Origin: a virus
Lineage: Duplodnaviria > Heunggongvirae > Uroviricota > Caudoviricetes
Virus record (IMG/VR): IMGVR_UViG_2778261347_000004
DNA: 6,803 nt
Direction: 5' to 3' (one strand)
A model generated the notes under the pieces. The model saw nothing but the letters and a program-made list of their open reading frames with translations, was not told where the DNA came from and searched no databases. Numbering within the stretch: position 1 is the stretch's first letter; each line of letters opens with the position of its first letter. This document shows, in pieces, positions 4,661 through 4,957 of the stretch. The position numbers were made by a program, and so were the translations under genes.

Positions 4661-4957
4661 ATGGAATTTCTGATAGTTTTTGTTGTTGTTTTGGTCATCA
4701 TTCTTTTTGTTTTGCTAAGCATTAGTAAAAAGCTATCTCAAATGATTGAACATAGCTCTAATCGTGCAAAAGAAGAAGAGCATATAATTGATATAAAAGA
4801 GATTCTCTCTGATATAAAAATCACATTAGATGAAATAAAATACACAACAGATCTAATTGAACAGTATAAAATACCAACCCCAAACGAGAGAAAAGCAATA
4901 GATCAATATCGTATTGACTTAGAAATCGACGAAATGCTAAGCAAAAGAAAAGACTAA
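4661..4957 (+). CDS. Hypothetical single-pass membrane protein, 98 aa, AT-rich accessory gene in the rex position downstream of cI
   Basis: GGAGGG Shine-Dalgarno before ATG 4661; N-terminal TM helix EFLIVFVVVLVIILFVLLSI then charged helical region; about 29 percent G+C by my count; no terminator between cI and this gene; strong terminator immediately after. Confidence 0.7.
   Translation: MEFLIVFVVVLVIILFVLLSISKKLSQMIEHSSNRAKEEEHIIDIKEILSDIKITLDEIKYTTDLIEQYKIPTPNERKAIDQYRIDLEIDEMLSKRKD

Follow-up and report, generated by a model that had tools for sequence, protein, structure and literature searches.

What does a lambdoid prophage gain from a small, AT-rich gene placed directly behind its repressor gene? 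The question is raised by ORF98, an open reading frame (ORF) of 98 codons running from ATG to TAA at positions 4661-4957 on the plus strand of a 6,803-nucleotide (nt) stretch of viral DNA (IMG/VR record IMGVR_UViG_2778261347_000004), referred to here as the window. ORF calls together with Pfam and PHROGs scans identified the window as the part of a lambdoid prophage that carries its immunity and replication genes. An earlier inspection of the letters and their translations, the sequence-only reading, had proposed that ORF98 is a candidate exclusion or defence gene expressed in the lysogen. We found ORF98 to be a real gene under purifying selection, with a conserved linkage to cI and to a terminator, a membrane-anchor architecture and no conserved promoter of its own. 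On its position and architecture, an anti-phage role as a membrane-anchored exclusion factor is a tentative reading, falling a little short of probable.

Whether ORF98 is a gene at all was assessed from its coding signal. Shuffling positions 4621-5000 produced an open frame of 98 codons or more in 1.3% of cases, which by itself is only mildly significant; conservation and the ratio of nonsynonymous to synonymous substitution (dN/dS) make the gene certain. When the window gene was compared with four homologues of 65-78% identity, dN/dS was 0.11-0.16 at a dS of 0.8-2.1, and this low ratio at near-saturated synonymous divergence demonstrates purifying selection on ORF98. Homologues of 38-100% identity keep the same frame, length, start and stop. 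These values bear on the alternative that ORF98 is a spurious or decaying frame in an AT-rich spacer, the real role of which would lie in the DNA or RNA (an insulator between pRM and pL, or a tract for H-NS). The region is indeed very AT-rich, a frame of this length is only mildly improbable by chance, and the predicted folding of the 4600-5010 RNA is somewhat more stable than that of shuffled sequences (z = -3.0); the fold score was given little weight, because the coding signal explains the conservation. The ORF98 region had no Rfam match, and a profile search recovered a protein family with conserved motifs. Given the low dN/dS at saturated dS in a frame retained down to 38% identity, this alternative is effectively refuted and keeps a negligible probability.

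We then considered where the gene lies. The cI repressor of 235 amino acids (aa) is encoded on the plus strand at 3913-4620 (HTH_3, E-value 8.5e-07; Peptidase_S24, 1.6e-17; phrog_4); its ORF opens at TTG 3883, the repressor is counted from ATG 3913, and its stop codon occupies 4618-4620. RefSeq places cI at the same coordinates in E. coli strain 11368. A plus-strand spacer of 40 nt (4621-4660) separates cI from ORF98; it carries a Shine-Dalgarno sequence, GGAGGG, at 4652-4657, and the terminator scan detected no terminator-like hairpin in it. The sequence-only reading had ORF98 following cI without a terminator and preceding a strong one before oL, and this arrangement was borne out. An intrinsic terminator starts 5 nt past ORF98, with a 7-bp stem (ACCCGGC-CTCAGC-GCCGGGT, six G-C pairs) at 4962-4981 followed by the T tract TTTTCTTTT. 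It is the sole plus-strand terminator of the interval. The whole element (4962-4989, -13.7 kcal/mol) was detected on both strands and, with an A tract upstream, is potentially bidirectional.

Operators bound the region on both sides. The palindrome ATAACN4GTTAT occurs six times in the window against 0.21 matches expected by chance. Three operator-like sites between cro and cI (3838-3851, 3863-3876 and 3887-3900), recognised by the pattern count and by repeats shared with oL, constitute oR, and pRM and pR should lie within 3838-3900. On the far side, oL/pL (5155-5196, plus strand) comprises operator-like sites at 5155-5168 and 5180-5193 that overlap a pL-like promoter, TTGACC-17-TATCTT (5168-5196); a third, degenerate oL site lies outside these coordinates at 5112-5124. 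The antiterminator gene N (5391-5663, plus strand; N_peptide 1.1e-15, phrog_271 4e-34) marks the far edge of the cI-N slot. Since oR, oL/pL and N flank it in this way, ORF98 lies inside the immunity region, at the slot that holds rexAB in lambda, which agrees with the earlier placement in a rex-equivalent slot. Between cI and N lies a recognised hotspot for accessory and defence genes that the lysogen expresses; rexAB is one such locus, and RNA-seq shows that bstA of the Salmonella prophage BTP1 is transcribed from the cI promoter (PMC7067206, PMC8585504).

Genomic context was recovered for nine further homologues from Citrobacter freundii, C. portucalensis, Yersinia frederiksenii and metagenome or read-archive contigs, and the lambdoid loci so obtained (L002/L003, L004, L005/L006, L009, L011/L012, L013, L014/L015, L016 and L017) were compared with the window. 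In all ten lambdoid loci, the gene (38-100% identical among homologues) lies directly 3' of an S24 repressor gene, on the same strand, before pL and N, at a gap of 1-44 nt. The repressors themselves represent three or more lineages with no relationship to one another, and have diverged further inside these lineages; for example, the window repressor and that of L002 share 22% identity (E-value 0.06), and L002 and L009 gave no match. At nine of the ten loci, an intrinsic terminator is found no more than 70 nt past the gene, and its stem is kept while the loop varies in L002, L004, L005 and L009. DNA alignment of the closer homologues showed conservation from the Shine-Dalgarno sequence, about 10 nt before the ATG, to the terminator stem, with unrelated flanks; GGAG is kept at homologous loci and the sequence upstream of it is not. 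At L016, a gap of 1 nt separates the cI stop codon from the ATG, and the Shine-Dalgarno sequence falls within cI.

A promoter of its own, the classical mark of a moron, was not found for ORF98. The sole nearby promoter-like site (4586-4614) scores 9 of 12, which is chance level, and the promoter scan gave no promoter-like site inside the gene. With this result and the lack of an Rfam match, an internal promoter and an antisense or structured RNA were rejected. Because the conserved DNA consists of Shine-Dalgarno sequence, ORF and terminator, and the gaps shrink to 1 nt, ORF98 appears to have no promoter of its own and to rely on transcription of cI. ORF98 does have the features of an accessory gene of the cI-N slot, namely its location and strand, a mosaic presence with sharp boundaries, its own terminator and a deviant composition. 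Collectively, this comparative evidence indicates that ORF98 is a cassette without a promoter of its own that has passed from one repressor operon to another. The ten loci and the promoterless cassette strongly support the cI-linked expression in the lysogen that the sequence-only reading had predicted, and co-transcription with cI is strongly inferred from them.

Exchange of cargo in this slot was also seen from the side of the repressor. In Escherichia phage SH2026Stx1 (L007, 2052-4031), the C-terminal 189 residues of the repressor are 98% identical to the window cI; the homology ends at the cI stop codon, and the cargo there consists of a DUF3024 protein and hypothetical proteins of 177 and 44 aa. 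Because the homology stops at that codon and different genes lie beyond it, cargo is evidently swapped in the cI-N slot. At several loci, a convergent gene of 68-75 aa on the minus strand abuts the shared, potentially bidirectional terminator (L002 8324-8530, L003 4383-4607, L004 1138-1347 with DUF2767, L005 8324-8548, L006 1364-1588 and L009 4733-4960); it is absent from the window. In E. coli strain 3CM (L021, 1261-2691), an insertion sequence (IS) element of the IS3 family lies within the 5' part of the ORF98 homologue, and this insertion accounts for a truncated 75-aa database entry that has no transmembrane (TM) helix. The most remote members of the family, at 24-34% identity, do not lie beside a repressor gene. 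One is found among small unannotated genes in Pelagicoccus sp., a Verrucomicrobium (L008, 6001-6351), one after a gene for a SHOCT-domain protein (L010, 1229-1570) and one on a Rep3 plasmid-like contig (L018, 5001-5342), and their neighbours gave no informative Pfam or PADLOC match.

The base composition of ORF98 had been estimated earlier at about 29% G+C, below that of the flanking genes, and had been taken as a mark of horizontal acquisition. The estimate was accurate: ORF98 has 29.3% G+C (43, 19 and 25% at the first, second and third codon positions) against 43.4% for cI, 50.2% for N and 45.6% for the window, and a 200-nt profile reaches its minimum of 28.5% at 4701-4900. Low G+C is family-wide, however, at 29-40% in every host. 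The flanks have 47-55% at nine loci and 36% at L004, where only a few hundred bases of flank are present. The low value is partly forced by a composition rich in Ile, Lys, Glu and Asp, as the 19% at the second codon position indicates. AT-richness is thus not simply a mark of recent acquisition. The mobility of the gene is better seen in the cassette boundaries, so that the claim of horizontal transfer holds on those boundaries and not on composition as proof.

The protein is built as the sequence-only reading had described it, with an N-terminal TM helix followed by a charged, helical part; ORF call, hydropathy and AlphaFold agree on this. The TM helix spans residues 3-21 (4667-4723), with a Kyte-Doolittle 19-mer peak of 3.67, and the remainder is hydrophilic, with 14 Lys or Arg and 18 Asp or Glu residues. 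A variable linker (residues 27-43) leads to a conserved two-helix module (residues 44-95; 4790-4945) with the turn Y69-K-I-P-T-P74. AlphaFold models are all-helical at a predicted local distance difference test score of 80-82, and place either helices 2-38, 45-68 and 74-96, with a break after the first, or a helix 2-68, a turn 69-73 and a helix 74-97. A single hydrophobic segment (hydropathy 2.3-3.7) is present in 18 of 18 members, none of which has a Lys or Arg N-terminal of the TM helix, and all of which carry a charge of +1 to +4 directly after it. Since this charge distribution predicts an N-out/C-in orientation, ORF98 is predicted to be a single-pass inner-membrane protein with its conserved module in the cytoplasm.

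The family has few members. Among 5.8 billion proteins, a word-indexed search gave 11 clusters, from E. coli and Citrobacter, and an exhaustive profile search of 1.84 billion gave only 14 representatives at 50% identity, which are 24-67% identical to ORF98. The common plan is one N-terminal TM helix, a linker that varies in length and, toward the C-terminus, a conserved motif that reads approximately IKY(T/V)TD-IEKYKLP-x3-ER-x-ID-x-I-x-ID-x-EI, in which Y69, P72, D81 and E88 are invariant. Compared by region, the ratio of nonsynonymous to synonymous differences (pN/pS) was lowest in residues 44-95 (0.095), intermediate in the TM helix (0.22) and highest in the linker (0.78). Given these regional ratios and the variable linker, the C-terminal module seems to be the functional unit, and the sequence and length of the membrane-tethering spacer seem to matter little. 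A module that is near-invariant at saturated synonymous divergence probably has a conserved partner, probably of the host, rather than a fast-evolving phage protein.

The same architecture was weighed as that of a membrane toxin, an addiction element or a holin-like protein, normally held in check, which would stabilise the prophage or time lysis. A single TM helix with a highly charged cytoplasmic C-terminus is holin-like, and the weak recurrent matches of the family are all to TM and coiled-coil families of unknown function (DUF4446, DUF948). However, a toxin that nothing keeps in check could not be made constitutively alongside cI in every lysogen, a partner antitoxin gene is not conserved adjacent to ORF98, and the conserved part is the soluble C-terminal module rather than the TM helix. 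ORF98 is a gene of the immunity region, far from the lysis cassette and not beside endolysin or spanin genes, and no holin family was matched in Pfam or PHROGs. We consider a toxin or holin very unlikely.

Searches for a known function agreed with the earlier remark that the protein has no recognisable motif. Nothing rose above the gathering score in Pfam (hmmscan) for ORF98 or its 17 relatives; NCBIfam, PDB and BFVD gave no match to ORF98; and none of the known defence or superinfection-exclusion families was matched in PADLOC, Pfam or PHROGs. The sole match is phrog_18389, of unknown function, which aligns over the full length (E-value 6.4e-62, residues 1-98 on positions 1-98 of 98) and is also matched by 17 of 17 aligned relatives. 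It is the family of ORF98; having no annotated function, it is silent on mechanism. Several weaker candidates were rejected as compositional: ZorB (PADLOC, E-value 0.017, TM helix only), sub-threshold matches to the TM and coiled-coil families DUF4446 (five members), DUF948 (three members) and DUF5385, a phrog resembling phi29 p16.7 (E-value 0.03-0.09), and PDB-sequence profile matches to designed coiled coils and channel TM helices. A seven-sequence alignment run against GTDB representatives returned 49 pattern matches, none of which was confirmed. In the literature, the protein accession is unmentioned, and the papers on H-19B and on O26 Stx1a phages are silent on the gene.

Taking position and architecture together, we favour a reading in which ORF98 would act as an exclusion factor of the lysogen. 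In a lambdoid Stx1a prophage, the cassette of ribosome-binding site, ORF and terminator, lacking a promoter, would have been added to the end of the repressor operon. It would be transcribed with cI from pRM in the lysogen and also from pRE while lysogeny is being established, and would lie outside the lytic pL and pR transcripts. The expectation of lysogen expression follows from its place in the sole part of a lambdoid prophage that is transcribed when repressed. The product would be a single-pass inner-membrane protein with a two-residue periplasmic N-terminus and about 75 cytoplasmic residues. These would form a helix continuous with the TM helix, the variable linker and the strongly conserved acidic helix-turn-helix module (residues 44-95), which has heptad-like hydrophobic spacing. 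The protein may oligomerise. Held at the cytoplasmic face of the membrane, the module would bind its conserved partner, and a superinfecting phage could then not establish infection. In the version we prefer, genome entry through the inner membrane would be disturbed; in another, membrane failure would be triggered, resulting in abortive infection. Of the two, the entry block seems the slightly likelier, given that conservation does not extend to a gene for a sensor partner. Action through a host partner has precedents, as HK97 gp15 acts through PtsG. A further case is DicB, which is reported to act on ManYZ (PMC6832061).

Known systems resemble ORF98 in different respects. Rex consists of two genes, and its membrane protein RexB, multi-pass and of about 144 aa, needs the cytoplasmic sensor RexA. 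ORF98, in contrast, is a single gene for a single-pass protein of 98 aa, and no Rex family appeared in the Pfam, PHROGs and PADLOC scans. What the two loci share is a position directly 3' of cI in the immunity region, with a terminator before oL/pL. In the lysogen, lambda rexAB is read from the same transcript as cI, and RexB is its membrane component (PMC8585504, PMC7067206). Like ORF98, bstA is a single accessory gene directly downstream of cI with its own Rho-independent terminator, and its synteny with repressors is likewise conserved across taxa. BstA is a soluble protein of about 300 aa. Unlike the small membrane protein ORF98, it is larger, is found where phage DNA replicates and has the self-immunity DNA element aba, and the Pfam and PADLOC scans gave no similarity between the two.

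In size and location in the cell, ORF98 is closer to proteins that act on DNA entry. The genes for P22 SieA, HK97 gp15 and T4 Imm are located elsewhere in their genomes, and we found no similarity of ORF98 to them in sequence or fold. Sie2009-type proteins of phage Tuc2009 and other lactococcal P335 phages are small, have an N-terminal membrane anchor, are encoded in the lysogeny module beside the repressor gene and are expressed in lysogens. They differ from ORF98 in their Gram-positive host, their different predicted orientation and their unrelated sequence, and the profile searches gave nothing similar. Small inner-membrane prophage proteins suffice to block DNA entry, as is the case for SieA, gp15 and Sie2009, the last of which blocks DNA injection (PMC10883804). 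The likeness of ORF98 to SieA, gp15 and Imm is that of small phage-encoded inner-membrane proteins, sufficient alone, at the DNA-entry step; SieA has a conserved motif on the cytoplasmic side and 162-164 aa with three TM helices (PMC10883804), whereas ORF98 has one TM helix and a conserved part predicted to be wholly cytoplasmic. ORF98 is thus like rexAB and bstA in position and expected expression, like SieA, gp15 and Sie2009 in size and predicted location, and a member of none of these groups.

Several points weigh against an exclusion function. We found no transcript, proteomic or phenotypic data on ORF98, and the extreme conservation of its C-terminal module suits host-directed functions other than defence equally well. 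The same slot elsewhere holds genes of non-defence or mixed function, such as hex of phage 434. Since an IS3-disrupted copy occurs in one E. coli genome, the gene is dispensable for carriage of the prophage, and remote relatives exist outside lambdoid contexts.

Part of this evidence leads toward a modulator of the lysogeny circuit. Its tethered module would bind a host factor (e.g. FtsH/HflKC, RecA or ClpXP) that controls the fate of the repressor or CII, and would tune the establishment, stability or SOS induction of the prophage, hence Stx1 release, rather than exclude other phages. The linkage to cI, kept over ten immunity regions and down to 38% identity, is tighter than expected of arbitrary cargo; the layout would lead to induction from pRE along with cI during establishment; and the C-terminal module is nearly invariant, as for a conserved host target. 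There are precedents in 434 Hex, from the same slot, and in lambda CIII, which is reported to inhibit FtsH (PMC1838920). However, the associated repressors are unrelated in sequence, which makes a direct interaction with cI unlikely; the remote homologues on a plasmid-like contig and in a Verrucomicrobium have no repressor gene nearby; and the IS-disrupted copy is tolerated. A substitution for cIII was rejected, because cIII co-occurs with the gene (L014 and L020). We regard such a modulator as unlikely.

The distribution of ORF98 was examined next to its surroundings in E. coli. Window positions 4500-5100 are 100% identical to the Stx1a-converting phage Stx1a_10051, and identity is likewise 100% between positions 4621-5000 and the Stx1a prophage of strain 11368 (E. 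coli O26:H11), in which ORF98 is WP_000394868.1, annotated as 'hypothetical protein'. O26 Stx1a phages are long-tailed and lambda-like (PMC10042803). The gene was found in 99 of 5426 complete E. coli genomes, mostly Shiga toxin-producing E. coli (STEC) of O26 or O111 type, with some pig, chicken and human commensal isolates. In three further E. coli genomes, the cro protein is identical to that of strain 11368 (WP_001054987.1) and the repressor gene is equal in length and placement, with different replication and early-left flanking modules. By tblastn against 50,697 records of the GenBank phage collection, the family appeared only in Stx1a_10051, and the plasmid collection gave one weak partial match, in a 1.4-Mb E. 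coli record.

This distribution bears on whether ORF98 is a factor of lysogenic conversion, that is, a small regulator of a host membrane complex (transport, envelope stress or division) that would raise fitness in the gut or the environment. Many small E. coli membrane-protein regulators likewise have one TM helix and a short cytoplasmic helical domain, and strong purifying selection acts on what is probably a host-binding surface. The gene is enriched in the Stx1 prophages of O26 and O111 STEC and also occurs in the commensal, pig and chicken isolates, and the expected expression is that of accessory genes of the lambda lom and bor type (PMC7067206). Against this, the gene is rare, and in E. 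coli it is always found with one immunity type. The absence of a signal peptide or surface-exposed part excludes a surface role like that of bor or lom. The characterised genes of this exact slot, moreover, are mostly anti-phage, with nun and stk to be added to rexAB and bstA. A conversion factor seems improbable to us.

The rest of the window has the expected layout of an immunity and replication region. The Pfam and PHROGs scans placed a DnaB-type helicase gene at 845-2221, an O-type initiator gene at 2277-3005, cII at 3189-3554 and cro at 3577-3822, all on the minus strand; further early-left genes lie on the plus strand beyond N. Relative to O26:H11 strain 11368, the window O gene (2277-3005) lacks 34 bp between two 9-bp direct repeats (GGCGTTTTC), with the junction at 2387-2398. 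The resulting frameshift shortens the product from 273 to 242 aa and alters its C-terminus; the frame that originally encoded the C-terminus persists as a minus-strand ORF at 2218-2382. The 34 bp are present in eight of the eight top-listed complete E. coli genomes, and the prophage may be replication-defective or the loss may be an assembly error.

Between pL and N, at 5242-5283, lie a candidate boxA-like sequence, GGCTCTTTAACA, and a hairpin, TCCCGC-CGAAAT-GCGGGA, resembling boxB (nutL). A 148-aa ORF on the plus strand (5582-6028) overlaps the 3' end of N and matches phrog_7374, of unknown function, from residue 29; the RefSeq start is equivalent to window position 5666, which gives 120 aa. 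A 164-aa ORF on the minus strand (6059-6553) opposes the pL operon. It has an N-terminal coiled coil and a C-terminal CxxC...CxxC pattern, which is zinc-ribbon-like, and matches phrog_1244, of unknown function, with nothing else significant in Pfam, PHROGs or PADLOC. It is a candidate for another, independently expressed accessory gene.

The existence of a gene such as ORF98 would not surprise a specialist. Only a few prophage genes are expressed in all lysogenic cells, however, and those co-transcribed with the repressor gene belong to them; the characterised genes of this slot (rexAB, bstA, nun and stk) each revealed a distinct anti-phage or regulatory mechanism. The comparison suggests, in addition, that a promoterless unit of Shine-Dalgarno sequence, ORF and terminator can move between unrelated repressor operons. 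With a single gene of 98 aa and clear domain boundaries, the small family is experimentally tractable. A bolder proposal, which we hold to be quite unlikely, is that the family is no cargo but a membrane-tethered third component of the repressor operon in a subset of lambdoid phages; through its invariant cytoplasmic module it would capture a conserved host factor (e.g. FtsH/HflKC, RecA or an inner-membrane permease), thereby determining prophage stability or inducibility, and with it Stx1 phage and toxin release in O26 and O111 STEC; in a weaker form, it would be a single protein excluding phages from the cytoplasmic face of the inner membrane. Stx1a prophages of O26:H11 and O111:H8, which are major STEC lineages outside O157, carry ORF98. 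If it is an exclusion factor, it would influence which further Stx or other prophages these pathogens take up, as well as their response to therapeutic phages; should it tune induction, it would bear on the release of the toxin.

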